Assembly: GCA_035650615.1 (NCBI GenBank) | Contig: DASRHI010000052.1 | Coordinates: 72,550 to 136,549 of the forward strand | Source: Gaiellaceae bacterium | GTDB taxonomy: Bacteria; Actinomycetota; Thermoleophilia; Gaiellales; Gaiellaceae | Reading direction: 5' to 3' | DNA: 64,000 bases | Shown here: piece after piece, positions 2,800 through 61,971 of the stretch | Position numbering within the stretch: the first letter of the stretch is position 1 | Layout: each line of letters begins with the position of its first letter | Program-made: the position numbers and the translations under genes | The notes under the pieces: generated by a model | Databases searched by the model: none | Seen by the model: only the letters and a program-made list of their open reading frames with translations | What the model was told of the DNA's origin: nothing

Positions 2800-4628
2800 T
2801 ACTCGACGGTCACGGTCTTCGCGAGGTTCCGCGGCTGGTCGACGTTGAGGCCGCGGAGACGCGCGATCCGGTAGGCGAGGAGCTGGAGCGGCAGGGTCGC
2901 GAGCACCGCCTGCAGGAACGCCGGCGACTGCGGCACGTAGACGACGTCGTTCGCGTGGTGCTGGATGTCCTCGTTGCCGTCGGTCGCGACGGCGATCACG
3001 TGGGCGCCCCGGGCCCGCGTCTCCTGGATGTTGGAGACGATCTTGTCGTAGACGTGGATGTTCGTCGCCACGACCACGACGGGAGTCCCCTCGTCGAGCA
3101 GCGCGATCGGGCCGTGCTTCATCTCCCCGGCCGAGTACGCCTCGGTCGGGATGTAGGAGATCTCCTTCAGCTTGAGCGCGCCCTCGAGCGCGACCGGCAG
3201 GCCGATGTGGCGGCCGAGGAAGAGGAAGAACGGCTCCTGGTAGAAGCGCTGCGCGATCTCCTCGATCGGGTGGTTGCCCTCGAGGAACGCCTGCATCTTC
3301 GAGGGCAGGCTGTACACCTCGTCGAGGATGAATTCGATCTCGTCCGGCGGGAGCGTCCCGCGCGTCCGGGCGAGCTCGAGCCCGATCAGGTACATCAGGC
3401 CGACCTGCGCCGAGAACGTCTTCGACGCGGCGACCCCGACCTCGAGGCCGGTGCGCGTGTACAGCACCGAGTCGACCTCGCGCGTGATCTGCGAGCCCAT
3501 CTGGTTCGTGATCGCCACCGTGCGCGCGCCGAGCGTGCGCGCGAGCTGCATCGCCTGGATCGTGTCGCGCGTCTCGCCGGACTGCGAGATCCCGATCACG
3601 AGCGTGTCCTCGTCGATCACCGGACGCCGGTAGATCCACTCGCTCGCGATGTCGGGCTCGACGGGCACCCGCCCCCACTCCTCGAGGACGTAGCGGCCGA
3701 CGACGCCGGCGTGGTAGGCGGTGCCGCAGGCGACGATGACGATCCGCCGGAGACGGCGCAGGCCGTCCTCGGTCATCCCCAGGCCGTCGAGCACGAGCCG
3801 CCCGTGGCGGACGCGGTCGCCGATCGTCTCCGCGAACCCCTCCGGCTGCTCGTAGATCTCCTTGAGCATGAACGTCTCGTAGCCGGAGCGCTCTGCGACG
3901 TCCTCGTCCCAGTCGACCTCGTGGGTCTCCAGCACCACGGGCTCGCCGCCGGCCGCCTGCACGTACGACACCCCGTCCGGCCGCAGGTCGACCACGACGC
4001 CGTCGGGCGGGTACTGGACGCGGCGCGTCTCGGTGAGGAACGCAGCGAGGTTCGAGGCGAGGAAGCTCTCGCCGTCGCCCAGGCCGACGACGAGCGGCGT
4101 CTGGTGCCGCACGGCGACGAGCCGCTGCGGCTCGCCCGAGTGGATGACGACGAACGTGAAGTGGCCCTCGAGCCGCGCGTAGGCGGCGCGGACCGCGGCG
4201 GCGAGGTCGCCGTCGTAGAGCGTCTCGAGCAGGTGCGCGACCACCTCCGCGTCGGTCTCGGAGGTGAAGACGTGGCCGGCCGCCTCGAGCTCGCCCTTGA
4301 GCTCGCGGTAGTTCTCCACGATCCCGTTGAGGACGATCGCGAGCTTGCCGTCGTCGCAGCCGGTGAGCGGGTGCGCGTTCTCCTCGTTGACCGCGCCGTG
4401 CGTCGCCCAGCGCGTGTGCCCCAGCCCGGTCGTGGCGGGCGAGCCGTTCGGGCCCGCGGCGCGCTTGAGGTTGGCGAGGTTCCCGACGGCGCGCACGTAC
4501 TCGAGGCCGCCCGGCTCGAGCAGCGCGATCCCGGCGGAGTCGTAGCCGCGGAACTCGAGCCGCTCCAGCCCGGCGATCAGCAGGTCCTTCGAGGGCCGGC
4601 CTCCGACGTATCCGATGATCCCGCACAT
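2799..4628 (-). CDS. glmS: glutamine--fructose-6-phosphate aminotransferase (isomerizing)
   Basis: MCGIIGY (N-terminal Cys nucleophile), two SIS domains, C-terminal NLAKTVTVE; 609 aa. Confidence 0.97.
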   Translation of the reverse strand: MCGIIGYVGGRPSKDLLIAGLERLEFRGYDSAGIALLEPGGLEYVRAVGNLANLKRAAGPNGSPATTGLGHTRWATHGAVNEENAHPLTGCDDGKLAIVLNGIVENYRELKGELEAAGHVFTSETDAEVVAHLLETLYDGDLAAAVRAAYARLEGHFTFVVIHSGEPQRLVAVRHQTPLVVGLGDGESFLASNLAAFLTETRRVQYPPDGVVVDLRPDGVSYVQAAGGEPVVLETHEVDWDEDVAERSGYETFMLKEIYEQPEGFAETIGDRVRHGRLVLDGLGMTEDGLRRLRRIVIVACGTAYHAGVVGRYVLEEWGRVPVEPDIASEWIYRRPVIDEDTLVIGISQSGETRDTIQAMQLARTLGARTVAITNQMGSQITREVDSVLYTRTGLEVGVAASKTFSAQVGLMYLIGLELARTRGTLPPDEIEFILDEVYSLPSKMQAFLEGNHPIEEIAQRFYQEPFFLFLGRHIGLPVALEGALKLKEISYIPTEAYSAGEMKHGPIALLDEGTPVVVVATNIHVYDKIVSNIQETRARGAHVIAVATDGNEDIQHHANDVVYVPQSPAFLQAVLATLPLQLLAYRIARLRGLNVDQPRNLAKTVTVE

Positions 4629-46606: not shown

Positions 46607-47044
46607 GTGACGCGGGTGCGCCGGACGCTCGACGAGCTCCTCGCCGAGGCCGGCCGCTCGGTCACGCGGCTCTCGCCGGCGGAGGCGCTCGAGGCCGCGG
46701 AAGCGGGCGGGCTGATCGTCGACATCCGCGGTGAGCGCTCCCGCGAGCGCGACGGCGTCGTCCCCGGCTCGATCCACGTTCCGCGCACGGTGCTCGAGTG
46801 GCGGCTCGAGCCCGGCGGCGCATGGCGGAACCCTCACGTCGGCGGCCTCGGCCGGCGCATCGTCGTCCTCTGCGACCACGGCTGCTCGTCGCTGCTCGCC
46901 GCGGCGACGCTGGCCGAGCTCGGGTACGAGGAGGTGGCGGACGTCGCCGGCGGCTTCGAGGCCTGGCGCGCGGCGGGGCTGCCGGTCACGCCCGCGCCGC
47001 GCCGCGACGGCGCCGGCCTCCCCGGAATGGACGGGCCCGACTGA
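46607..47044 (+). CDS. rhodanese-like domain protein
   Basis: IVDIRGERSRERDGVVPGSIHVP, active-site loop VLCDHGCSS, and GGFEAWRAAGLPV; 145 aa. Confidence 0.75.
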   Translation: MTRVRRTLDELLAEAGRSVTRLSPAEALEAAEAGGLIVDIRGERSRERDGVVPGSIHVPRTVLEWRLEPGGAWRNPHVGGLGRRIVVLCDHGCSSLLAAATLAELGYEEVADVAGGFEAWRAAGLPVTPAPRRDGAGLPGMDGPD

Positions 47045-48075
47045 GCCTCGCGCACGGTCTCTTCGAGGGCGGGCTCGCCGAGCTGCACACGCACCTCGGC
47101 GGCTCCGTCGCGTCCGACATCATGTGGAGCCTCGCGCACGAGCAGGGGATGGCGCTCCCGACGCGCGACTACTGGGAGTTCGACCGGATGGTCACCGTCT
47201 CGGACCCGCGAGGCGTACCGGACCTCGACGCGCTCGACCGCATCTACCACCTGACGGAGCTGATCCAGTCGTCGCCGCTCGCCGTCGAGCGCTCGGTGCA
47301 CGCCGCGATCGGCGGCGCCTACCGGTCGCAGGGGATCACGACGCTCGAGCTGCGGTTCAACCCGATGAAGCGAAACCGCGGCGGGGAGCGCGACCTCGAC
47401 CACATCATCCTCGCGGCGATCCGCGGGCTCGATCGCGCGTCGCTCGAGTACCCGCAGGTGCGAGCGGGGCTGATCCTGATGATGGACCGCACGTTCACCG
47501 CGCACCAGAACATGGTGATCGTCGAGAAGGCCGCGCGGTACGCGTCGCGCGGGATCGTCGGCATCGACATCGCGGGGCCTCGTCCGGGCGGCGCCCGCTG
47601 GGACTACACGCAGATCCGGCCGCACGTCGACGCCGCCCGCGAAGCGGGGCTCGGCGTGACGATCCACGTCGGCGAGGAGGGGGACGAGCTCGGCCGTGAG
47701 GAGCTTCGCGAGGTCGTGGCGGAGCTCCGCCCCGACCGGATCGGCCACGGCATCCTCGCCGCCGGCGATCCCGACCTGATGGAGCTTCTGCGCGAGGCGG
47801 CGATCACCCTCGAGGTGTGCCCGACCTCGAACCTGCTCACGAAGGCGCTCGCCGGCGAGGCGGACGTGCGGCGGGTCTTCCGCGCCTTCGTCGACCACGG
47901 GGTGCCGTTCACGATCGCGACCGACGGCCCGGAGATGATGCGCACGCACCTTCGTGACGAGTTCGAGTTGCTGCTCCGGATCGAGGCGCTCGACCGCGAC
48001 GAGGCGCGCGCCGCCAACGAGCGCGGCCACGCTGCCGCGTTCGGGGCGCCGGCCACGACCCCCTCCACCGCGTAG
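47041..48075 (+). CDS. adenosine/adenine deaminase family protein (start codon uncertain, probably CTG at 47041)
   Basis: Tail of track ORF 46798..48075: LAELHTHLGGS (HxH metal site), LRFNP, TIHVGEEG, RIGHG, and FTIATDGPEMM. There is no ATG/GTG/TTG between the rhodanese stop and the HxH motif. CTG at 47041 overlaps that stop as CTGA. Confidence 0.8.
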   Translation: MSLAHGLFEGGLAELHTHLGGSVASDIMWSLAHEQGMALPTRDYWEFDRMVTVSDPRGVPDLDALDRIYHLTELIQSSPLAVERSVHAAIGGAYRSQGITTLELRFNPMKRNRGGERDLDHIILAAIRGLDRASLEYPQVRAGLILMMDRTFTAHQNMVIVEKAARYASRGIVGIDIAGPRPGGARWDYTQIRPHVDAAREAGLGVTIHVGEEGDELGREELREVVAELRPDRIGHGILAAGDPDLMELLREAAITLEVCPTSNLLTKALAGEADVRRVFRAFVDHGVPFTIATDGPEMMRTHLRDEFELLLRIEALDRDEARAANERGHAAAFGAPATTPSTA

Positions 48076-48159
48076 CCCGTCGCGCGGCCCCGGTCTGGGA
48101 CGGAAATACGCCGTTCGGCGGATGGTCGCCCGACAGGGCCCGCAGTAGCCTCACCGCCC

Positions 48160-48420
48160 ATGCAGGCGCTCCGAGATTCCGACTTGATCACGCCGCGCCA
48201 GCTCGAGGTGATCCGTCTGATCGCGGAGGGTCTGTCGAACGAAGAGGTCGGACACGAGCTCGGCATCTCCCCTCGCACCGCCAAGGCCCACTGCGACGTC
48301 CTGCGGCAGAAGCTCGGCGTCCAGCGGCGCCGCCAGATCCCGCTCGCGTACCGGCTCCTCACCGGCGACGACCCGCTCGCGAAGAGCCTCGAGCTCGCGA
48401 AGGCCGAGAACTGCGGCTGA
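48160..48420 (+). CDS. LuxR/GerE-type HTH-only regulator (86 aa)
   Basis: ITPRQLEVIRLIAEGLSNEEVGHELGISPRTAKAHCDVLRQKLGV. No receiver or autoinducer domain, and no obvious SD. Confidence 0.75.
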   Translation: MQALRDSDLITPRQLEVIRLIAEGLSNEEVGHELGISPRTAKAHCDVLRQKLGVQRRRQIPLAYRLLTGDDPLAKSLELAKAENCG

Positions 48421-48428
48421 CGGCGGGT

Positions 48429-48451
48429 GCCCCCGGCCGCCGGCCGGGGGC
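48429..48451 (+). terminator. GC-rich stem-loop after the 86-aa LuxR gene
   Basis: GCCCCCGGCC-GCC-GGCCGGGGGC, a perfect 10-bp stem, lies about 9 nt after the stop. There is no U-tract, so it is terminator-like only. Confidence 0.4.
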
Positions 48452-48505
48452 GCCCGGCGGGCGCGCGCCGTTGGACGCACCGCCACGACCGGCCACGGCT
48501 GCTCC

Positions 48506-48560
48506 GGCGACGAGGCAGGCGCGAGCGCGCGGCTCACCGGCAACCCGTCGGACCGTCGAC
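48506..48560 (+). repeat. degenerate upstream duplicate of the first 17 codons of the LAL gene (start codon ATG changed to ACG)
   Basis: The sequence ggcgaCgaggcaggc... (about 48506-48560) aligns with ggcgaTgaggcaggc... (about 48655-48709), about 45 of 55 nt identical by eye. It encodes TRQARARGSPATRRTVD versus MRQARPRGSPATRRIIE. Confidence 0.7.
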
Positions 48561-48658
48561 CCGACCCGACGTCCCGAGTTGCCCGGGCAGGCCACACGGC
48601 CCCGGCGGCCGCCCCGCGGTAGCCGTACGGCCGCCGGCCGGTTACGGTTGCCCAGGCG

Positions 48659-51217
48659 ATGAGGCAGGCACGACCACGCGGCTCACCTGCGACCCGGCGG
48701 ATCATCGAGCGCCCGCGACTGCTCAAGCTGCTCGACGAGGCGACCGCCCGGACGATCCTCCTCGTTGCCCCGGCGGGGTACGGGAAGACCACGCTCGCGC
48801 GGCAGTGGGTCGATGTCCGACCGGGTGCGCTAATAACCGTTGGGCTCGCAGCAGGGGACGTGGCTGTCCTTGGCCGCGCGATCGCGCTAGCGCTGGCAGG
48901 GGTCATACCGAGACTGCCGCGACTTGTTGAAGAAGCCATCCGCGCGGCGCCGACACCACATCGGCAGGTGAAGAGCCTTGTCGGTGCGATCTTAGGAGAA
49001 CTGGACGAGCCGTTGGACTTCTGGCTCGTCATCGACGACTACCACACCCTTGAGCCTGGATCGCCGTCCGACACTCTGGTCGAGACATTAGAGACAAGTG
49101 GCTACTTCCGGCTTATCGTGGCATCTCGGACGAAGCCCATCTGGGCGACGTCGCGACGGTTCCTCTACGGTGAGATCTTGGAGCTCGGTCAGAGCGAGTT
49201 GAGACTCACCGACGCCGAGTCTCATGACCTGCTCTCTGACCATTCCGATAGCCAGTCCCTGCTCCGGTTAGCACAGGGTTGGCCTGCTCTCGTTGCACTG
49301 GCGGCTACTGCTGATCCCGGAGGAGCCTTACCCGCACATGGGAACTCCCAGAGGCTGTACGCGTTCCTTGTTGAAGAGGTTTTTCAGCAAGCATCGCTCC
49401 AGGCCCAAGAGGCGTTGTTGCGCGCCACCTTGCTGCCGCCGCTATCCGGAGACTCACTCCGTGAGGTTCTTGGAGCGAGCGCAGTTCGCCATCTCTTAGC
49501 CTCCGGGCTCGCGCACGATTCTGCCGGAATAGTTGAGATTCATCCGCTCATTCGGGATGCGCTCCATGCGCGAATCCTGCGTAGACCAGACCTCCGTGAG
49601 TCAGTAGCAGACAGCATTAGATTCGCGGTCGAGAATGAGTACTGGGACGAGGCATTTGAGCTCATCAATCGCTTTGAGGAATACACAGCTCTTGACGAGC
49701 TACTCACCCGTTCCTTCCTACCCTTAGTTGAGTCAGGACGCGCTGCAACACTGGAGCAGTTCGCCATGTACGCCGCCAGCAAAGGCGTTGCGCAACAGCC
49801 CCTCCTTGATCTCATTGACGCAGAGATAGCTCTTCGAGACGGACTGCTGCAGCGAGCCTTTTCGCTAGGACAGCATGCAGGAGAGCAGCTTGACTACCAA
49901 CACCCGCTCCGAGCTCGGGCATTCATAATCGCTGGCGCTGCCGCACACCTCGATTGGCGGCTAAAAGACGCACTTTCTATGTTCGCTGAAGCCAAGAAAG
50001 CGTCCAGGCGTTCAAGGGACGCGAACGACGCTAGCTGGGGTCGATGCTTAAGCGCCGTGTTTCTCGAAGATGAGGCCCTGCGGGACGCCGTAGCTGAGTA
50101 TGAGTCAATCCCAGACGCTTCGGCTGAAGACCGTCTCCGTCTGATTACTGTTCGGCAGCACCTGGCACGCTTGTCAGATGGTCTATATGACTTGCGGAGA
50201 GACGAAGCCGTAGCCAGATCGCTGCTGCCAGCTGTATCTGATCCTTTGGTCCGGACAGGCTGGGGTAATTCGCACGGCTACATGCTCATCCTCCAGGCTC
50301 GCTATGCACAAGCCAAGGCGATCCTGGCGATGGTGCTCGGCGACCTCGATAGGTATGCGCTAGCTTTCGGGCGTCCGCACATCGAGTGGTCGATCGCCGC
50401 AGCGGAACTGGGCCTTCGACAGTTCGCGCGGTCGGACGCCTCACTCCGCCGAGTCGAGCAGATCGTCGGAGAAAGTGCGAGCCCATACCTCGAAGTGAAT
50501 ACGCGAGCGCTGCGAGCACGTCTCTTGCTCTGTCAGCGTCGGGCTGCAGAAGCAATCACAGTTACATCTGAGGAGTTCGACGGCCTTCCCGAGAATGCAA
50601 TCTTCGGCGAGTACCTGGGCACGCATGCGCTTGCGCTTGCTGTCGCCGGACATGGAGAGGAGGCCGTCGAGAAGGCCGCGCGTGCAGCGGCTGTCACGAA
50701 CGCTGTAGAAGTCCGCGTGCTCGCCGCAGCTGCACGAGCCATCGCGCTAACGCAGACCGGGGACGGGCGTTCGGCAGCGTCTGCACTCGTACAGCTCGCT
50801 TCGAGAGTACAGGTGTGGGATCCTGTTGTTTGCGCCGTCCGCGCGTTTCCACCTCTCCTTAGCGACCTAGCCGTCGTCAACGCGTATCGCGTTAACCTTG
50901 CGAAGGCTCTGGTTCGTTCGAACGACCGAAGTCTCGCACGTAGTGCTGGGCTTAGCGAGGTCCGCCGGTTCACCGGGCAGGGCGACCTCAGCCGACGTGA
51001 GGCCGAAGTCATCGATCTATTGGGACAAGGACTTAAGACACGCGATATCGCGACCGCCTTATACATCTCGGAAGCCACCGTAAAGGTGCATGTTCAGCAC
51101 ATCCTCGAGAAGCTCGATGCGCGCACGCGCGCTGAGGCGGTCGCTCGTTACAGAGACACGACGGCTCGAGCGGACACTTCGGAAACCCGGTCGGACGCTT
51201 CATCCTCCGCGCGCTGA
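48659..51217 (+). CDS. LAL/MalT-type STAND ATPase transcriptional regulator with C-terminal LuxR HTH
   Basis: Walker A LLVAPAGYGKTTLARQW, Walker B FWLVIDDYHTLEP, a long helical (TPR-like) middle region, and C-terminal LSRREAEVIDLLGQGLKTRDIATALYISEATVKVHVQHILEKL; 852 aa. Confidence 0.88.
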   Translation: MRQARPRGSPATRRIIERPRLLKLLDEATARTILLVAPAGYGKTTLARQWVDVRPGALITVGLAAGDVAVLGRAIALALAGVIPRLPRLVEEAIRAAPTPHRQVKSLVGAILGELDEPLDFWLVIDDYHTLEPGSPSDTLVETLETSGYFRLIVASRTKPIWATSRRFLYGEILELGQSELRLTDAESHDLLSDHSDSQSLLRLAQGWPALVALAATADPGGALPAHGNSQRLYAFLVEEVFQQASLQAQEALLRATLLPPLSGDSLREVLGASAVRHLLASGLAHDSAGIVEIHPLIRDALHARILRRPDLRESVADSIRFAVENEYWDEAFELINRFEEYTALDELLTRSFLPLVESGRAATLEQFAMYAASKGVAQQPLLDLIDAEIALRDGLLQRAFSLGQHAGEQLDYQHPLRARAFIIAGAAAHLDWRLKDALSMFAEAKKASRRSRDANDASWGRCLSAVFLEDEALRDAVAEYESIPDASAEDRLRLITVRQHLARLSDGLYDLRRDEAVARSLLPAVSDPLVRTGWGNSHGYMLILQARYAQAKAILAMVLGDLDRYALAFGRPHIEWSIAAAELGLRQFARSDASLRRVEQIVGESASPYLEVNTRALRARLLLCQRRAAEAITVTSEEFDGLPENAIFGEYLGTHALALAVAGHGEEAVEKAARAAAVTNAVEVRVLAAAARAIALTQTGDGRSAASALVQLASRVQVWDPVVCAVRAFPPLLSDLAVVNAYRVNLAKALVRSNDRSLARSAGLSEVRRFTGQGDLSRREAEVIDLLGQGLKTRDIATALYISEATVKVHVQHILEKLDARTRAEAVARYRDTTARADTSETRSDASSSAR

Positions 51218-52587
51218 GGTGCAAAGTTGAAGTCGGCCCCTTGGGCCAGTCGGTATTCCTCGCTTGAACCTGCCAGAACCGCCTCGAACGCTGCTACCAC
51301 AGTGGTGTCGAACTGAGTTTCGACGGCCTGAGCTAGGCGCAAACGTGCAACGCGACTCGGCATTGCATCTCGATACGGACGATCAGATGTCATCGCGTTG
51401 TATGCATCTGCCACAGCGATGATCCGCGCGAGGAGTGGGATCTCTTCTCCTACCAACCCGTCGGGATACCCTCCTCCATCCACTCGCTCGTGATGATGAC
51501 GAACGATGGAAGCGATCTCGGAATAGGTCTCGACGTTCGCGAGGATGCGCTCACCGATGACCGAGTGCTGCTGCATCTCGCGGCGCTCTTCGAGCGTGAG
51601 AGCGCCGGGCTTTTCTAGAAGACCTGGAGGAAGCCCGATCTTCCCGATGTCGTGCACCAACCCGGAGACATGCGCCAACTGCTGCTGCTCCGCGGACAAT
51701 CCCATGCGTATCGCGATGTCTCGGGCGTAGACAGCGACGGCGCTCGAGTGACCAGCCGTGTACCGATCGCGGGCGTCAAGCGTTGCGACAAGGGCAGACG
51801 CGAAGGAGAGGTTTGCCCTCTCCAGCGCCGAGTTAGCGTCCACGAGGTCCCTCGTGAGCTTCCGCTGATCTTGGTAAAGGGCGAAGAGGCGCTGGGCGGC
51901 GAGGGCGGGCGCCAAGAAGAGGGGGAGCGTGAATGGCGAAAGCTGGTCGTACGCGAATGCAAGGAAAGCGACAACTGGTGCGTAGAGTGGCACCGCGGAG
52001 AGGGCGAGAGGCACGAGTTCATGGAGGGCCTCAAGCACTCGATCGCGGCGCCGCACCCACACAGCCATTCCTGCAAAGGCGGCATCCAAGGACTGAGACA
52101 CGAGCGCACCAGCGAGGGTTGCGACAACAACGCTCGCGAGCGTGCTGTCGATGCGCTCCGACACGCTCAGAGCGATCAAGCCTGTCACCGCCGCGGTGAT
52201 CGCCCGGCTCGCTGTATAGGAGGCCCAGCGGAGATAGGGATGACGAAACTCGGGCAGGAACGAGGCGACCCCTACAACCATCGCCGCGAGCGGCCCGAAC
52301 AGTACGGCTGCGAACAGCGTCGGGACGAGTGAGATCGACTCAGAGAGGTTCGGACTCAGCTCGACGCGGCTTCGCTCGGCGATCGCAGCCACGACCGCGA
52401 GGAGCGGGGTGACGTACGGGTTGCCGAGTGACCAACCAGTCTCGACCAGGACGATGGCAAGGCCACCGGCCACCACCCAGAGCGCGACGACATACAAGCG
52501 CGAACGGGCCTCGACGTCCGTCAGAAGGCCGTGCTTCTCCCGAAATCTCCTCAAAGCTTCCACCGAACGTCTAAAAGTCCTTGCCAA
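51148..52587 (-). CDS. membrane-bound HD-GYP domain phosphodiesterase
   Basis: The N-terminal 230 or so aa contain about 7 hydrophobic helices. These are followed by HD-GYP motifs: DARDRYTAGHS, VHDIGKIGLP, and HHHERVDGGGYPDGL. TTG start preceded by GGGGGA. Confidence 0.88.
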   Translation of the reverse strand: MARTFRRSVEALRRFREKHGLLTDVEARSRLYVVALWVVAGGLAIVLVETGWSLGNPYVTPLLAVVAAIAERSRVELSPNLSESISLVPTLFAAVLFGPLAAMVVGVASFLPEFRHPYLRWASYTASRAITAAVTGLIALSVSERIDSTLASVVVATLAGALVSQSLDAAFAGMAVWVRRRDRVLEALHELVPLALSAVPLYAPVVAFLAFAYDQLSPFTLPLFLAPALAAQRLFALYQDQRKLTRDLVDANSALERANLSFASALVATLDARDRYTAGHSSAVAVYARDIAIRMGLSAEQQQLAHVSGLVHDIGKIGLPPGLLEKPGALTLEERREMQQHSVIGERILANVETYSEIASIVRHHHERVDGGGYPDGLVGEEIPLLARIIAVADAYNAMTSDRPYRDAMPSRVARLRLAQAVETQFDTTVVAAFEAVLAGSSEEYRLAQGADFNFAPQRAEDEASDRVSEVSARAVVSL

Positions 52588-52607
52588 TCCCCCAAAAGGG
52601 GTATAAG
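52581..52607 (+). promoter_or_regulatory. sigma-70-like promoter candidate TTGCCA-N15-TATAAG
   Basis: TTGCCA (52581-52586) and TATAAG (52602-52607) lie upstream of the 20-codon ORF. The spacer is only 15 nt, which is suboptimal. The -35 hexamer overlaps the HD-GYP TTG start on the other strand. Confidence 0.3.
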
Positions 52608-52653
52608 GTACGAAGTGCCGTCAGTTCCGAACAAGGAAGAGGGAGGTCCGTCA

Positions 52654-52716
52654 ATGCGCCGGATCGTTCGCCTCGTGTCGCGCGGCGCTGTCGCCGGCGG
52701 CGCGGTCTACTGGTAG
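52654..52716 (+). CDS. candidate 20-aa micro-ORF (MRRIVRLVSRGAVAGGAVYW)
   Basis: Hand-translated. GGGAGG lies 7 nt upstream of the ATG, and a TAG stop follows. An ATCCCC-CATCC-GGGGAT hairpin plus TTGT lies about 36 nt downstream. It sits in the AT-richer spacer of the low-GC segment. Confidence 0.35.
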   Translation: MRRIVRLVSRGAVAGGAVYW

Positions 52717-52769
52717 AGCTCACGTAGATAAGACTTTTCACCGTCCCGTGGCATCCCCCATCCGGGGAT

Positions 52770-52790
52770 TTGTCCACAAGAGGTGGAAAA
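52770..52790. promoter_or_regulatory. imperfect palindrome TTGTCCAC-aagag-GTGGAAAA containing an exact TTGTCCACA (actinobacterial DnaA-box consensus)
   Basis: Read directly from the sequence. The 8-nt arms match 7/8 as an inverted repeat. It lies between the 108-aa LuxR gene and the HD-GYP gene. Confidence 0.35.
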
Positions 52791-52813
52791 CCTGCGTGAT
52801 TCTCTGTTGAGGC

Positions 52814-53140
52814 TTAGGTCAGGAGCCCGCGTCGGAAGCCGACGGCGACCGCGTGGGCTCTTGACCGCGCCTGAAGCTTCGCCAAGATGTGCCGAACATG
52901 GCTCTTGACCGTCTCCTCCGAGAGGAAGAGGCGGTCCCCGATCTCCCTGTTGACAAGACCCTCCGAGACGAGCTGAAGCACCTCGATCTCGCGGGCCGTC
53001 GGCGACTGCTCGAAGACGGGGGGCCGCGCCGGCATCTGGATCACTTCGGCGACCGTCGGCCTGCGGGCGGCGAGGCTTTCGAACCGCTCTGCGTGCTTCC
53101 GGTACCTGGTCAGGATCTCCTCGCGCTGGGCAGCATCCAT
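52814..53140 (-). CDS. LuxR/GerE-type HTH regulator (108 aa)
   Basis: PTAREIEVLQLVSEGLVNREIGDRLFLSEETVKSHVRHILAKLQARSRAHAV. The short N-terminal extension has no recognised domain. Confidence 0.75.
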   Translation of the reverse strand: MDAAQREEILTRYRKHAERFESLAARRPTVAEVIQMPARPPVFEQSPTAREIEVLQLVSEGLVNREIGDRLFLSEETVKSHVRHILAKLQARSRAHAVAVGFRRGLLT

Positions 53141-53200
53141 CGAGACGACTATCGGCAGGCCCCGGGAACCGCTTTAAGTACGCCGACTAACCCATTCGAG

Positions 53201-53728
53201 CTATAGGCGAACGAGGCGCCGGCGGCGGCTGCGGAGGTCGGCGGGCTCGGGCTCCTCGACCACTCCGAGCCCGTCGCGAGCGGTCGCGTGCAGGATCCGG
53301 TCCTGTCCGGCCCAGAAGGCCACGTGATCGGCCCGCTCCCCGCCGTAGGTGACGAGGTCGCCGGGGCGGAGGTCGGCCTCCGGAACGGGTGTCCCCGCCT
53401 CCTCGAGCTGCCACGAGTCCCGGGGGACGAGGCGGCCGCAGAGCCGGTAGGCGAGGTGGACGAGGCCGGAGCAGTCGAGCCCGGCAGCGGTGAGCCCGCC
53501 CCACTCGTAGGGCGAGCCGAGGAACGAGCGTGCGACCGAGAGGGCGTCGGAGCCGCAGAGCGCCTCCTCGCGGATCCAGCCCGGATAGCCGTAGGCGGTC
53601 GTGATGTGGACCCACCCGTCCCGCCGCTCCCCGACCTCGAGCGGCTCGCCCCGGAGCGCCTGCGTCACCTGCTCCGCATCGTCGCGGGGCTCCGCCCGCA
53701 CGGACGCGGCCTCGACGCCGCACCTCAC
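53201..53728 (-). CDS. NlpC/P60-family peptidoglycan endopeptidase with N-terminal SH3b-like domain
   Basis: Track ORF 53201..54016. [24 protein letters not shown]...GWVHI is SH3b-like. [19 protein letters not shown] holds the catalytic Cys, and ADHVAFWAG the His. The GTG start overlaps the upstream stop (GTGA). Confidence 0.8.
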
Positions 53729-54282
53729 GGGAGCGCGGCGAGCCGGCCCTCCAGGCGCGTCCGCACGGCCGGCCAGTCCTCGTCCGTGATCGCGTACCAG
53801 GCGGAGTCGCGCGGCCCGCTCGGGAGCATCATGTGCTTCCGGGCGATCCCCTCGAACCGCGCGCCCAGGGCGAGCAGCGAGCCCCGCGTCCGCAGGTTCC
53901 TGGCGTCGGTCTTGAACTCGACCCGCTGCAGCCCGCAGCGGTCGAAGGCGTGCTCGAGAAGCAGGAGCTTCGCCTCGACGTTCGCCCCCGTCCCCCACGC
54001 CGCCCGCCGCAGCCATGTCCAGCCGATCTCGACCCGGCGGTGCTCGGGGGCGTAATTCATGTACCGCGTCGAGCCCGCCGGGTGGCCGCCCACGCAGACC
54101 GCGAACGGGATGTCGGCCGAGGCGAGGGCTTCGTCGAAGTAGCGGTCGAAGTCGCCCGGCCAGACGAGGTAGCGGAAGATCTCGGGCCCGGCCTCGGCGG
54201 CGGCGCGCAGCCCTTCGCGATGCCGCTCCTCGAGCGGCTCGACCGAGACGATCCTGCCGGCGAGGGCCCCTTCGGGCCGCAC
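53725..54282 (-). CDS. GNAT N-acetyltransferase (RimJ/RimL-like)
   Basis: Tail of track ORF 53725..55476: [46 protein letters not shown], and [22 protein letters not shown] start 5 nt after the sigma-factor stop. Confidence 0.75.
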
Positions 54283-54287
54283 GGCCG

Positions 54288-55373
<1,086 letters not shown>

Positions 55374-55472: not shown

Positions 55473-57698
55473 TCAATTCTCCGCGGCCGCGGCCGGTTCC
55501 GCCACCTGCTCCTCGGCCTCGGCCGAAGCGCCGTCGCGGGAGGGGCGCGCCGGGAAGTCGAATTCGACCTTCCCCTCGGAGGTTAAGACGAGACGCGCGC
55601 GAAAGTGTTTGCCCGCCCGCGACTTGAAACCTGACAATACCTCACGCGTCCTCCCCTCTTCAAGGAGCTGTCGCGCGAGCTCGGGGGTCAGGGTGCGGCC
55701 GGCGACCCTCTTCCAGATCACGAAGCCGCAGCCGGGCTCCTCCCGGCTCTTCCAGCTCGTGCAGCCGTAGGCGCGGGAGTTCTCCTTGATGATCTCGCCG
55801 GTCTCGGCGCCGCAGCGGGGGCAGAGGCCGAGCTCGACCCGGACCGGGCGGAGCTTCTCCTTGTCGAGGGCGGCGATCTGCTTGACGATCTCGTCCGTGA
55901 AGCCGGCGATGTCGGCCATGAAGGCCCGCCGGTCGCCCTGGCCGTGCTCGATCTCGGCGAGGCGGTGCTCCCAGTCGCCGGTCAGCTCGGGCGAGGTGAT
56001 CTTGTGCTCGTCGAGCATCGCGATCACCTGCAGGCCCTTCGGGGTCGGCTGGAGGTCCTTCCCGACCCGCTCGACGTACTCGCGCCGGATCAGCGTCTCG
56101 ATCGTCTCGGCCCGGGTCGCGGGCGTCCCGAGACCGGAGTCCTTCATGGCCTCGCGCAGCTCCTCGTCGTCGATCAGCTTGCCGGCGGTCTCCATCGCCG
56201 AGAGCAGGGTCGCCTCCGTGTAGCGGGGCGGCGGCTTCGTCTCCTTCGCCTCGACCTCGGCCTCGACGCAGCGCACCCGCTGGCCCCGCTCGAGCGGCGG
56301 GATCTCGGCCGTCGCCTCCTCGCCCTCCTCCTCCTGCCGGGCCAGCTTCTCCTCCTCGGACTCGAGGCCGTAGACGCCGCGCCAGCCGGGCTCGAGCGTG
56401 ATCTTGCCGCGCGTCCGGAAACGCTCGCCCTCCACCTCGGTGATCACGGTCGTCCGCTGGTAGCGGGCGGGCGGATGGAAGACGGCGAGGAAGCGCTTGG
56501 CCACGAGGTCGAAGACGCGACGCTCGTCCGGGGTGAAGTGGGCGAGGTCGTGCTCGATGTCGGTCGGGATGATCGCGTGGTGGTCGTCCACCCGGGCGTC
56601 GTTCACGACCCGGCCGAGCGGCAGCTCGGCGAGCTCGACCACGAACCGCGCCGCGGCCGCGTAGTCCGCGATCGGGAGGAGCGTGGCGGCGGTCGGCTTG
56701 AGCTGCGGCACCATGTCGCCGGAGAGGTAGCGCGAGCTCGTGCGCGGGTACGTGATCGCCTTCTTCCCCTCGTAGAGGCTCTGCGCCGCCTGCAGCGTGC
56801 GACGGGCGGAGAAGCCGAAGCGGCGGTTCGCGTCGCGCTGCAGGGAGGTGAGGTCGTAGAGGAGCGGCGCGATCTCCTTCTGCTCCTTGCGCTCGACCGA
56901 CTCGACGACGCCCTCGGCCCCGTGCACCTTCTCGGCGATCGCAGGCGCCCGCTCCGGGTCGCCGAAGATGCGCGTCTCCTCGCCCTCGAACCAGAGGCCG
57001 GCGTAGCGAGGGTCGAAGGTCGCGTGGACGAGCCAGTACGGCTCCGGCGTGAAGGCCTGGATCTCGCGCTCGCGCTTGACGATCATCGCGAGCGTCGGGG
57101 TCTGCACCCGGCCGAGGGAGACGACGCCGCCGACCCAGGCACGGCCGCGCAGCGTCGCGGCCCGCGTGGCGTTCATGCCGACGAGCCAGTCGGCCTCGCT
57201 GCGCGAGCGCGCCGCCCGCTCGAGGTTCGCGAGCTCCCGCCCCGGGCGGAGCCGCTCGAAGCCGTCCCGGATCGCCTGCTTCGTCATCGAGCTGATCCAG
57301 AGCCGCTCGACCGGCTTGTCGACCCCGGCGAGCTCGTAGATGTAGGAGAAGATCAGCTCCCCCTCCCGCCCGGCGTCGCACGCGTTCACGATCCGGTCGA
57401 CGTCGTCGCGCTGCATCAGCTTGTGGATCTCCTTGAGCTGCTTCCTCGACTTCGCGTCGCGCGGCTCGAGCTCGAACTTGTCGGGCACGATCGGGAGGTC
57501 CTCCATGCGCCAGCGCTTGAACTTCTCGTCGTAGGCCTCCGGGTCTTTCAGCTGCACGAGGTGGCCGACCGCGAAGGTGACGATCTCGCCGTCGGACTCC
57601 CAGTAGGCGTCGCTCGGGGCCTGGAACGGTCCTGGGAGCGCGTTCACGATGTCCCGCGCGACCGACGGCTTCTCGGCTACCACCAGCGTCTTGCCCAC
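55473..57698 (-). CDS. topB: type IA DNA topoisomerase, topoisomerase III-like, with C-terminal zinc-ribbon region
   Basis: Toprim TLVVAEKPSVARDI, then TFAVGHLV, DAGREGELIF, SLGRVQTPTL, and the active-site Tyr context ITYPRTSSRYL. C-terminal CPRCG...CTSW...CGF; 741 aa. Confidence 0.85.
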   Translation of the reverse strand: MGKTLVVAEKPSVARDIVNALPGPFQAPSDAYWESDGEIVTFAVGHLVQLKDPEAYDEKFKRWRMEDLPIVPDKFELEPRDAKSRKQLKEIHKLMQRDDVDRIVNACDAGREGELIFSYIYELAGVDKPVERLWISSMTKQAIRDGFERLRPGRELANLERAARSRSEADWLVGMNATRAATLRGRAWVGGVVSLGRVQTPTLAMIVKREREIQAFTPEPYWLVHATFDPRYAGLWFEGEETRIFGDPERAPAIAEKVHGAEGVVESVERKEQKEIAPLLYDLTSLQRDANRRFGFSARRTLQAAQSLYEGKKAITYPRTSSRYLSGDMVPQLKPTAATLLPIADYAAAARFVVELAELPLGRVVNDARVDDHHAIIPTDIEHDLAHFTPDERRVFDLVAKRFLAVFHPPARYQRTTVITEVEGERFRTRGKITLEPGWRGVYGLESEEEKLARQEEEGEEATAEIPPLERGQRVRCVEAEVEAKETKPPPRYTEATLLSAMETAGKLIDDEELREAMKDSGLGTPATRAETIETLIRREYVERVGKDLQPTPKGLQVIAMLDEHKITSPELTGDWEHRLAEIEHGQGDRRAFMADIAGFTDEIVKQIAALDKEKLRPVRVELGLCPRCGAETGEIIKENSRAYGCTSWKSREEPGCGFVIWKRVAGRTLTPELARQLLEEGRTREVLSGFKSRAGKHFRARLVLTSEGKVEFDFPARPSRDGASAEAEEQVAEPAAAAEN

Positions 57699-61326: not shown

Positions 61327-61971
61327 TCAGCCGCGGGCCGCCGCGAGGCGCTCGAGCGCCTCGCGGCGCGACGAGACGCCGAGCTTCGCGAGCAGGCTCT
61401 TCACGTGGGAGCGAACCGTGTGCTCGGAGATGATCAGCCGGCGCGCGATGTCGTCCGTCCCGAGGTGCTGGTCGAGGAGGAGGAGGACCTCGAGCTCCCG
61501 CGCCGACAGCACGCTCGCGATCGCGTCGGGCACCGCGTCGCTTCGCCGGTCGCCCTCGCGCACCTCCTCGACGAGGCGCCGGGCGATCTGCCCCGACAGC
61601 GCCACCTCCCCGCGCGTGACCCCCCGCAGGAAGTCGACGATCCGCTCGGGCGGCTCGCTCTTCAGCAGGTAGCCCGCCGCGCCCGCCCGGATCGCCGTCA
61701 GCAGGTTGGCGTCGTCCTCGGCCGCGGTCAGGACGACCACCTCCGCGCCGGGGGCCCGCTCGCGGAGCAGCGGGAGAGCCTCGAGCCCGGTCATGTCGGG
61801 CATCGTCAGGTCGAGGACGATCAGGTCGGGCTCCAGCGCGCCCGCGCGGTCGACCGCCTCCTGCCCGCCGGCCGCCTGCCCGACCACGTCGAAGCCGTTC
61901 GCGCCGAGCAGGGACGCGAGCGCCTCGCGCGTGAGCGGGTGGTCGTCGACGATCAGGACCCGCGCCGTCAT
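61327..61971 (-). CDS. two-component response regulator, NarL/LuxR family
   Basis: The receiver domain has VLIVDDHPL and LIVLDLTMPDMTG (phospho-Asp context). The C-terminal HTH is LSARELEVLLLLDQHLGTDDIARRLIISEHTVRSHVKSLLAKLG. Confidence 0.93.
   Translation of the reverse strand: MTARVLIVDDHPLTREALASLLGANGFDVVGQAAGGQEAVDRAGALEPDLIVLDLTMPDMTGLEALPLLRERAPGAEVVVLTAAEDDANLLTAIRAGAAGYLLKSEPPERIVDFLRGVTRGEVALSGQIARRLVEEVREGDRRSDAVPDAIASVLSARELEVLLLLDQHLGTDDIARRLIISEHTVRSHVKSLLAKLGVSSRREALERLAAARG

Follow-up and report, generated by a model that had tools for sequence, protein, structure and literature searches.

Regulators of the MalT/LAL type combine an N-terminal P-loop NTPase, with Walker A and B motifs, and a C-terminal GerE/LuxR helix–turn–helix (HTH) in a chain of about 850 amino acids (aa), and MalT itself is known for ligand-induced, ATP-dependent oligomerisation and promoter activation. 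HD-GYP enzymes such as PmGH (4mcw), PA4781 (4r8z), DvhD (9rbz) and V-cGAP3 (5z7c) have in common an HD_5 domain with all catalytic motifs. We analysed a 64,000-nucleotide (nt) stretch of a metagenome-assembled genome (MAG) of a Gaiellaceae bacterium (GCA_035650615.1, contig DASRHI010000052.1, forward-strand positions 72,550 to 136,549; hereafter the window), in which relatives of both families meet in one module: a LAL-type regulator (LAL), a convergent membrane HD-GYP protein, two HTH-only proteins (GerE86 and GerE108) and a 20-aa micro-protein. We find that the low-G+C segment at its centre is the core of a regulatory module that is ancient in Gaiellales and sits at one chromosomal site in most of about 80 species sampled from this order, and that whole alleles of this core are replaced between close relatives. 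All parts belong to known families (LAL/MalT, HD-GYP, GerE). The initial annotation of the window knew of no named system of this composition, and in the libraries and literature that we searched we likewise found neither the gene combination, nor a fusion of an ECF-S-like sensor with HD-GYP, nor the micro-protein, nor an order-wide fixed locus with swapped alleles and constant low G+C.

The LAL of the window shares with MalT/LAL regulators its length and both terminal domains. Unlike them, its middle region is without a Pfam match, is about 30% identical among orthologues and is replaced as a whole allele in relatives; nor does the gene lie beside a sugar regulon or a biosynthetic cluster, being paired instead with the HD-GYP gene, the two HTH-only proteins and the micro-protein. 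The closest analogue of the enzyme is HdgA of Streptomyces, an uncharacterised 6TM-HD-GYP protein with the same layout of a six-helix membrane anchor and an HD-GYP domain (PMC6205966). The fold of the enzyme agrees with that of c-di-GMP-specific HD-GYP enzymes (template-modelling (TM) score 0.80–0.87), whereas its membrane domain resembles an ECF S-component, a combination not known to us from any described enzyme, and a hypervariable membrane half beside a catalytic half that is 76–93% conserved sets its family further apart from those listed above. As a locus, the module is like pherotype loci (Bacillus comQXP, staphylococcal agrBDC) and O-antigen or capsule clusters in its fixed chromosomal position, its conserved flanks, its breakpoints inside the sensor gene and its deeply divergent allele classes, which are incongruent with phylogeny. 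From general knowledge, these balanced hypervariable loci are atypically low in G+C, that is AT-shifted, as well. In contrast to pherotype loci, the module has neither co-variation between peptide and LAL nor export or modification genes, and its receptors would be a cytoplasmic STAND regulator and a membrane phosphodiesterase rather than a histidine kinase. Avs and other bacterial NLR-like proteins are comparable in their STAND NTPase, fast-evolving C-terminal sensor and allele turnover; the module differs in having no PADLOC match, in an HTH output instead of a toxic effector, and in being near-universal and syntenic rather than patchy. A compositional deviation of about 4.3 kb is what one expects of a classical genomic island, yet mobility genes, tRNA and repeats are missing, and relatives carry the module at the same site with atypical composition in all of them. 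The module is thus neither a genomic island nor a known defence system, and with respect to LAL it fails the co-variation test that is key to a pherotype locus.

A low-G+C block at a fixed position in Gaiellales

The G+C content of the segment was compared with the remainder of the window by 1-kb windows, a 200-nt profile, 4-kb windows and a two-level segmentation. In 1-kb windows the G+C is 0.578–0.631 at 49001–53000, and every remaining one lies at 0.683–0.791. The segment 48830–53200 has a G+C of 0.612 against 0.750 ± 0.013 in the 4-kb windows outside it (minimum 0.706), i.e. about 10 standard deviations (SD) lower, and is in this respect as atypical as a genomic island. Segmentation places the low block, to which no strand is assigned, at 48901–53210 (G+C 0.610, ~4.3 kb). 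In the 200-nt profile the drop sets in at 48800–48900, inside LAL, which starts at 48659, and recovers at 53150–53200, bearing out the limits near 48830 and 53200 of the initial annotation, whose five hand counts of 60-nt lines (32, 33, 31, 37 and 44 of 60) are all exact. Its picture of a five-gene low-G+C segment needs trimming, however. Within LAL, the G+C at third codon positions (GC3) steps from 0.96 (codons 26–50) to 0.60 (codons 51–75), with the onset 3' of the P-loop, and whole-gene GC3 is 0.625 for LAL, 0.70 for HD-GYP, 0.86 for GerE108, 0.91 for GerE86 and 0.89 for the adjoining adenosine deaminase (ADA). The LAL body, HD-GYP and the spacer therefore make up the low block, which extends in mild form into GerE108, whereas GerE86 and the 5' end of LAL (its first ~55 codons) are native in composition and lie outside it. 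Rare codons are frequent in the LAL gene (8 TTA, 12 CTA, 5 ATA).

The initial annotation took the segment for a laterally acquired island between the deaminase and an NlpC/P60 gene. To examine its ancestry, one genome per species was scanned, which yielded 80 loci (coded L005 etc.) onto which nine proteins were mapped; all are labelled Gaiellales or Thermoleophilia, except for two odd bin labels. HD-GYP orthologues lie in the gene order topoisomerase I, sigma-70, GNAT acetyltransferase, (NlpC/P60), GerE~108, HD-GYP, convergent LAL and GerE86. The four-gene block of GerE108, HD-GYP, LAL and GerE86 is complete in 57 of the 66 loci with enough sequence, and a mini-gene occupies 74 of 78 spacers, so that the genes do co-occur. 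The block adjoins the deaminase in 43/65 loci and NlpC/P60 in 39/64. Eight of the nine incomplete loci lack only an intact LAL: in L005, L047, L050 and five others LAL is truncated, fragmented or absent (+1300 to +3900; signed positions are relative to the HD-GYP start), and HD-GYP and GerE108 are intact. The LAL slot of L050 holds four open reading frame (ORF) fragments without a Pfam domain. Such broken slots could reflect pseudogenisation or sequencing frameshifts.

No empty site, with deaminase and NlpC/P60 adjacent and the block absent, was found among the relatives. Domain, tRNA and repeat searches agreed with the initial annotation that the segment carries no enzymatic or transport cargo, integrase, transposase or tRNA: all ORFs of the window are accounted for without a mobility gene, the 64 kb contain no tRNA and no flanking repeats of mobile-element type, and phage and plasmid records hold no full-length relatives of the module. 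Hence the sporadic distribution and the mobility genes, tRNA or repeats that characterise islands are both lacking. The presence of the block at the same position across the order shows that it is not an island inserted in this genome. A lateral component is likely, in the form of alleles exchanged within the order at an unchanging position and not of an acquired island.

Alleles of the core are replaced between close relatives

Between relatives whose flanks are 85–99% identical, the core is always the more divergent part. In 200-nt identity profiles, six pairs show sharp steps, three affecting LAL only and three including HD-GYP. In L057/L062, L056/L059 and L036/L037, the LAL body from +1200 to +3550 falls to an identity of ~0.5, i.e. 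is unalignable, and HD-GYP is at 0.85–0.93. In L045/L055, L013/L040 and L014/L050, both HD-GYP and LAL are at ~0.5 between highly identical flanks. For L014/L050, 8.7 kb of flank on one side match at 93.5% identity and 7.3 kb on the other at 90.0%; the stretch from −214 to +3886 contains a single alignable piece of 676 nt (71%). The breakpoints recur at about −200/−300, +1150 and +3550–3600. Identity is regained at ~+3600, within the first ~80 LAL codons, which is the site of the GC3 step in the window; the low block thus corresponds to the allele-replaced segment of relatives together with the spacer and, more mildly, GerE108. LAL allele classes also cross flank clades, as in {L013, L023, L035, L037} versus {L036, L040}, L015/L029 and L045/L055. 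The last two loci come from the same bin (MFD06085.bin.2.125) and carry different alleles in flanks that are 95–99% identical; L045 was assembled on a contig of 25.6 kb, and L055 occupies the extreme end of one of 938 kb. A second bin, SMAG_U4451, likewise holds two copies of the locus (L029 and L067). Such double copies look as if haplotypes of co-existing strains had interrupted the assembly at this point.

The genes are under purifying selection. In pairs without a swap, the ratio of non-synonymous to synonymous substitution rates (dN/dS) is 0.064 for HD-GYP and 0.16 for LAL, and the synonymous rate (dS) of these two genes is 2–3 times that of the flanks; dN/dS is 0.045 for GerE86 and 0.012 for GerE108. 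The low dN/dS, together with intact motifs and matching folds, marks LAL and HD-GYP as functional genes. The conserved frame consists of the output parts, namely GerE86, GerE108, the first ~55–80 LAL codons with the P-loop, the LAL HTH, the HD-GYP catalytic domain and the mini-gene. The fast-evolving parts are on the input side: the LAL sensor body and the ECF-S-like membrane domain of HD-GYP, which undergo whole-allele replacement between close relatives. We therefore regard the core as a hypervariable cassette of swapped alleles within a conserved locus, and put the probability of this reading at roughly 0.7. Descent would then be mostly vertical with episodic replacement or, alternatively, old allele classes would have persisted across speciation (trans-species polymorphism).

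In two of the pairs, L013/L040 and L036/L037, a second short divergent patch (identity 0.38–0.69) lies at +5200 to +5400, at the start of the deaminase gene region.

The core keeps its low G+C across hosts

The dip was measured in the 72 loci with enough flank, taking −300 to +3800 as the core. It is present in 72/72, with a mean of 0.066 and a maximum of 0.138 in the window itself, and the mean profile spans −750 to +3500. The initial annotation had held that the same gene order with native composition throughout the lineage would make the segment ancestral; the order is indeed shared, but native composition is never seen, as all 72 loci dip. The core G+C stays at 0.596–0.685 across backgrounds of 0.655–0.749 (slope 0.15, r 0.14). 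A second high-GC relative, L166, dips to 0.59–0.64 from a background of 0.75. On average GC3 is 0.157 (HD-GYP) and 0.167 (LAL) under that of the flanking genes, and it is never higher in any species. The GC3 of GerE108 and GerE86 is also shifted, by ~0.065, although these genes are strongly constrained, which indicates that the AT effect is regional and not gene-specific. At least one TTA codon occurs in 59 of 73 LAL genes, compared with about 1 in 45 for ADA and sig70 (the window LAL has 8), yet conserved, bldA-like TTA positions were not found, any one alignment column holding at most 4/73.

When substitutions were polarised, the ratio of AT-to-GC over GC-to-AT changes was 0.55–0.62 in the core and 0.35–0.44 in the flanks. 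The core shows no excess of AT-to-GC changes and thus no sign of amelioration toward host G+C. Bacterial mutation is AT-biased, and high G+C is upheld by selection or biased gene conversion; both forces lose efficacy on rare, recombinationally isolated allele classes. The best-supported explanation that we infer for the AT shift is that the alleles circulate in, or persist as, a pool untied to the composition of any one host. They may be drawn from a pool shared among species of 65–75% G+C, or may be old balanced allele classes; with either origin, core alleles would never equilibrate to one host's composition, and the GC-raising forces would act weakly on them relative to AT-biased mutation. 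The contrast would be largest in the window only because its genome is the most GC-rich.

The LAL regulator and the two GerE proteins

Domain searches agree with the three HTH proteins of the initial annotation. GerE86 (48160–48420, + strand) is a stand-alone 86-aa GerE/LuxR-type HTH (Pfam GerE, 3e-14; GC3 0.91), which is found at about +4250 in nearly all relatives with 64–86% identity. LAL (48659–51217, + strand) is an 852-aa MalT/LAL-type STAND NTPase regulator with a weak AAA_22 match. Both its Walker A motif PAGYGKTT (~48767–48793) and its Walker B motif VIDDYH align to MalT (8bob), and a C-terminal GerE HTH is located at aa 777–828 (~50987–51142; PF00196, 2e-15). It therefore has the P-loop NTPase and the C-terminal HTH of LAL/MalT-type regulators. 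By its score it is a family relative and not MalT itself, as the MalT model NF003420 matches aa 13–278 at 6e-29, under the equivalog cut-off. The 687-aa middle or sensor region (aa 88–774), where LAL/MalT-type regulators have a winged-helix arm and a superhelical (TPR-like) sensor domain, has no Pfam match; orthologues show weak WHD_MalT matches. Identity among orthologues, taken along the protein, is 0.55–0.66 at aa 1–60, ~0.3 at aa 61–780 and 0.58 in the HTH; in the alignments, the body between P-loop and HTH is hypervariable.

GerE108 (52814–53140, − strand; GerE 1e-18) has 108 aa, including a 45-aa N-terminal extension. No gene of the module is more constrained (dN/dS 0.012). Its HTH is 0.94–0.97 identical among relatives and 58% identical to the LAL HTH in a tblastn search with LAL aa 780–829 as the query.

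The GerE86–LAL gap is widened to 238 nt in the window. A repeat search and pairwise alignment revealed a decayed tandem duplication of ~150 nt at 48486–48744 (+ strand), covering the LAL leader and the first ~30 codons; its copies (48486–48595 and 48635–48744) are ~73–75% identical at a spacing of 149 nt, with ACG in copy 1 where copy 2 has ATG. Its location coincides with the recurrent recombination junction, and unequal recombination may have left it as a scar.

Directly 3' of the GerE86 stop, a near-perfect GC-rich palindrome (CGGCGGGTGCCCCCGGCCG / CGGCCGGGGGCGCCCGGCG, 89% complementary) occupies 48421–48459 (+ strand) in a stretch of 0.78–0.80 G+C; it is terminator-like and lies between GerE86 and LAL. 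A further LuxR/GerE-type HTH at 61345–61509 (− strand), ~8 kb from the module, is ~50% identical to the HTHs of LAL and GerE108.

A membrane HD-GYP protein with an ECF-S-like domain

HD-GYP (51148–52587, − strand) is convergent with LAL and overlaps it by 70 nt at the 3' end. The longest ORF starts at TTG 52587, and a 471-aa form starts at GTG 52563; either may be the start codon, and no convincing promoter was located for the gene. The HD_5 match (PF13487, 5e-37) covers a catalytic domain at ~51253–51843, and a six-helix domain resembling an ECF S-component lies at ~51943–52515. The initial annotation was right about a convergent membrane HD-GYP protein, though the membrane part has six ECF-S-like helices and is not 7-TM-like. 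The motifs HDIGK and HHERVDGGGYP are intact when aligned to 5z7c and 4mcw, which with 4r8z are the closest solved structures by sequence, and H304, D305, H357, H358, E359, D362, G363, G365, Y366 and P367 are invariant across 44 orthologues.

An AlphaFold (AF2) model was built with the 44 orthologues (mean pLDDT 85.3) and searched with Foldseek. The catalytic half matched c-di-GMP-bound DvhD (9rbz) with a TM score of 0.84–0.87 and PA4781 (4r8z) with 0.80 (E 1e-8 to 1e-10). Both the HD_5 motifs and a solved HD-GYP fold are thus present. The membrane half matched the S-components RibU, FolT, ThiT and PanT with TM scores of 0.55–0.66 and probabilities of 0.97–1.00, but E values of 0.1–0.6. Submitted alone, the N-terminal half scored 30.3 bits against PF07155 (ECF-ribofla_trS; cut-off 26.7), and this above-threshold match agrees with the Foldseek superposition, so that sequence and fold both point to an S-component. 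No ECF T or A genes occur in the block. As the S-component-like domain is fused to an enzyme, we take it for a sensor domain and not for part of a transporter; we know of no described sensor–enzyme fusion of an ECF-S-like domain with HD-GYP. Identity among orthologues is 0.25–0.62 in the membrane half and 0.76–0.93 in the catalytic half. With respect to the substrate, the best sequence match is V-cGAP3 (5z7c), specific for 3'3'-cyclic GMP-AMP (3'3'-cGAMP), and the best fold match is a domain bound to cyclic di-GMP (c-di-GMP). The predicted substrate is most likely c-di-GMP, or possibly 3'3'-cGAMP.

A conserved mini-gene in the spacer

The 226-nt spacer between HD-GYP and GerE108 holds a mini-gene for the 20-aa protein MRRIVRLVSRGAVAGGAVYW (52654–52716, + strand), divergent from HD-GYP and convergent with GerE108. 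The promoter, ribosome-binding site, 20-codon ORF and hairpin that the initial annotation had placed in this spacer were all recovered. A permissive ORF search of 78 spacers found orthologues in 74, of which 62 have 20–21 codons and 72 a Shine–Dalgarno-like motif, and all end in Trp-stop; the identical search on the opposite (sense) strand, run as a control, gave 0/74. Nucleotide variation by codon position follows the order 3 > 1 > 2, and close pairs differ by 285 synonymous versus 185 non-synonymous codons. Trp20 is invariant (47/47), and Ala14, Gly15 and Gly16 are near-invariant, in the consensus M-[RS]-K-[FI]-[AV]-[KR]-[LF]-V-x-[RS]-[AG]-x-[IV]-A-G-G-x-x-x-W. Judged from this pattern of conservation, the mini-gene is real and encodes a 20-aa protein from what appears to be its own promoter; the protein matches no Pfam-like or NCBIfam family. 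In some lineages (L012, L045, L055, L058, L046, L051) the C-terminal motif is internally duplicated, e.g. MLKFVKRIAGGSSAWGTIAGGSSAW, giving 22–26 codons with the Trp-stop end retained.

The predicted sigma-70-type promoter, identified via conservation, is located at 52581–52609 (+ strand), with −35 TTGCCA, a 17-nt spacer and −10 TAAGGT. A generic promoter scan returned no match because this consensus is weak. The pattern TTG[CA]NN-N16-18-TANNNT is at the equal position in 67/71 loci and has a single occurrence in the 64 kb. Part of the promoter coincides with the start region of HD-GYP, which is read from the opposite strand, so the mini-gene and HD-GYP units are physically coupled. Within the promoter spacer, the inverted repeat CCCCCAAAAGGGGT (52589–52602) is a candidate operator. 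The near-invariant motif GCCGTCAGT (52617–52625, + strand) follows ~31 nt 5' of the mini-ORF start, at the expected transcription start or early leader; as GCCGTYAGT it is found in 65/71 loci, 28–35 nt from the start codon, and once in the window. The Shine–Dalgarno sequence GGGAGG is at 52641–52646 (+ strand).

Between the stop codons of the mini-gene and GerE108 lies a structured region of 96 nt (52718–52813, both strands), recognised by folding and a conserved hairpin. Its minimum free energy is −36.2 and −37.5 kcal/mol on the two strands (z = −3.0 and −3.1), and its core hairpin TCCCCCATCCGGGGA (52754–52768) is followed by TTGTCCACA...GTGGAAAAC. A hairpin 3' of the mini-gene is present in 69/71 loci, with the compensatory variants ATCCCC/GGGGAT and RTCACC/GGTGAT in a per-sequence tabulation; RNAalifold on the gappy alignment of this region gave no structure. 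By its folding and conservation, the region is likely a bidirectional terminator between the mini-gene and GerE108. The inverted repeats of the spacer resemble BldM-type TCACC...GGTGA boxes and were considered as GerE-type operators; for the downstream element the hairpin is favoured because compensatory changes occur there while the GerE108 HTH is 94–97% invariant. An Rfam scan of 47500–54500 gave a chance-level match only, with no riboswitch in the spacer, which rules out a c-di-GMP riboswitch 5' of HD-GYP.

Neighbouring genes

The longest ORF of the adenosine deaminase (+ strand) begins with ~90 Arg/Ala-rich codons (46798–47067) that have no counterpart in relatives; as homology runs from ~47068, the true start is probably downstream of 46798. 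On the other side, about half of the relatives (L007, L008, L010, L013, L016, L028 and ~25 others) have sigma-70 and topA at ~9–10 kb from HD-GYP instead of 2.7–6 kb, implying a ~6-kb insertion between the acetyltransferase/NlpC genes and sigma-70 (−9000 to −2800). In other relatives NlpC/P60 is displaced to about −9 kb from HD-GYP. Beside sigma-70, the topoisomerase slot (55473–57698, − strand) encodes a type IA enzyme of 741 aa that carries a C-terminal Toprim_Crpt repeat. Most relatives have a TopA with Toprim_C_rpt in this place, to which the window protein is only 26% identical; identity is similarly low for L010, L083 and L084. The stretch at 55–58 kb is mildly AT-shifted (0.68–0.715), with a strong negative AT skew. 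The window gene may be a xenologous replacement of topA.

Alternative explanations

Several observations weigh against a cassette of exchanged alleles. No sister more than 90% identical to the window was found in a metagenome scan with the deaminase (best 89%, on a 1.4-kb contig), so replacement is observed in relatives and would hold for the window by its GC step at the corresponding place. Cassette distances rise with flank distances (r 0.5–0.86; LAL vs ADA r = 0.77), and much of the history must therefore be vertical. The LAL-only swaps could stem from paralogues in the same genome and not from other lineages. The polarised substitution counts fail to distinguish the core from its flanks by equilibrium G+C and leave our account of the AT shift unproven. 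Every relative is a MAG, and chimeric contigs with flanks and core of different organisms would mimic swaps, especially as conserved junction segments could in principle bridge assembly graphs. We find such artefacts barely credible, as the same breakpoints recur in many independent pairs from different samples, many loci lie inside contigs of 0.1–2.4 Mb, the two genes of the core are always the same, intact, under purifying selection and in unchanged order, and both the window itself and L166 have the dip too. The distance correlation, the raised dS of HD-GYP and LAL even in pairs without a swap and the frequent TTA codons would also suit purely vertical descent, in which weakly expressed regulators with relaxed or deliberately rare codons evolve fast sensors in situ and codon usage accounts for the AT shift. 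This is unlikely: in-place mutation cannot produce an unalignable core between sharp breakpoints when the adjacent DNA is 93–99% identical and diverged by a few per cent. Allele classes incongruent with the flanks, TTA positions that are not conserved, a shift that reaches the spacer and the constrained GerE genes, and a core G+C that does not track that of the host argue in the same direction. Recent gain of a foreign, self-contained island could account for the 10-SD deviation and the rare codons of LAL, but synteny refutes it as stated, the block being at one site in ~80 species with no empty site; the lack of integrase, transposase, tRNA, bounding repeats and phage or plasmid relatives, the native composition of GerE86 and the LAL 5' end, and the missing amelioration signal leave it extremely improbable.

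Two further explanations concern what the exchanged alleles would recognise. An immune-type sensor, in which LAL (like Avs/NLR proteins) and HD-GYP sense phage or competitor molecules and an arms race drives allele turnover, would fit the STAND NTPase with its hypervariable body, the replacement between close relatives, the decay or loss of LAL in some lineages (8 of the 9 incomplete loci) and the AT shift, which is typical of fast-turnover loci. We doubt it, given that PADLOC recognised no known anti-phage defence system and returned only generic HTH and HD matches (E 1e-4 to 1e-7), none on the NTPase, that the output is a DNA-binding HTH and not a toxic effector, that the module occurs almost universally, with housekeeping genes (sigma-70, topoisomerase) as its fixed neighbours, rather than patchily in defence islands, and that overall dN/dS is below 0.2. 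If instead the Trp-terminated 20-aa product were a signal and LAL or the HD-GYP membrane domain its co-diversifying receptor, as in ComQXPA, agr or RRNPP systems, one would expect what is seen in part: a conserved small-peptide gene with its own promoter adjoining the sensors, a hypervariable segment within conserved flanks with alleles incongruent with phylogeny, two alleles in one MAG bin, and swaps including HD-GYP that break at or beyond the mini-ORF, with different peptides in L014/L050 and L013/L040. Any coupling of the peptide to the HD-GYP membrane domain is inseparable from linkage, however, and the peptide does not co-vary with LAL, being identical in L056, L057, L059 and L062 across two LAL allele classes, which also weighs against our own preferred reading. 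Neither an exporter, protease or modification gene among the conserved neighbours nor, by inspection, a recognisable signal peptide was found, and the peptide is rather conserved (AGG and Trp20 near-invariant), unlike typical pheromones. A pherotype-like locus is thus a shade less plausible still than an immune sensor.

Proposed mechanism and significance

On the preferred reading of a swapped sensor cassette in a conserved frame, the variable LAL body would bind a cytoplasmic ligand, LAL would oligomerise with ATP as in MalT, and its HTH would activate promoters. GerE108, whose HTH is a close paralogue of that of LAL, and GerE86 may occupy or compete for the same or neighbouring operators. 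HD-GYP would lower a cyclic dinucleotide, most likely c-di-GMP, when a small molecule binds to its membrane domain, and the 20-aa protein, expressed divergently from HD-GYP under its own promoter, could be a partner or effector of the HD-GYP membrane domain or influence its expression. We tentatively propose, as possible rather than probable in its combined form, that the module lets members of this abundant, uncultured soil order recognise molecules in a strain- or lineage-specific way. The LAL body and the ECF-S-like domain would serve as sensors with many balanced, laterally exchanged alleles, the variable molecules sensed might be self-made signals, competitor metabolites or phage components, and the fixed output would consist of the invariant HTH proteins, the catalytic domain and the Trp-terminated 20-aa protein.

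Composition-based detection of horizontal gene transfer has a counter-example in this locus, which by its 10-SD drop in G+C and its rare codons would pass for an island but is syntenic across the order and conserved even in its atypical composition. It represents a previously undescribed module of two GerE solos, a LAL/STAND regulator, an ECF-S-like HD-GYP protein and a 20-aa protein, and adds a conserved micro-protein family and a sensor–enzyme architecture (ECF-S-like plus HD-GYP). Our literature search found nothing published on the c-di-GMP biology of Gaiellales, which are dominant, almost uncultured soil actinobacteria. The split between conserved output and swappable input makes two things testable, namely which variable ligands are discriminated, and whether alleles under balance or exchange are spared the forces that raise G+C in high-GC genomes. 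If the proposal is true, these bacteria would possess a new type of circuit for kin, niche or immune sensing that is linked to a cyclic dinucleotide, and balancing selection would keep a conserved locus at ~62% G+C across genomes of 65–75%.

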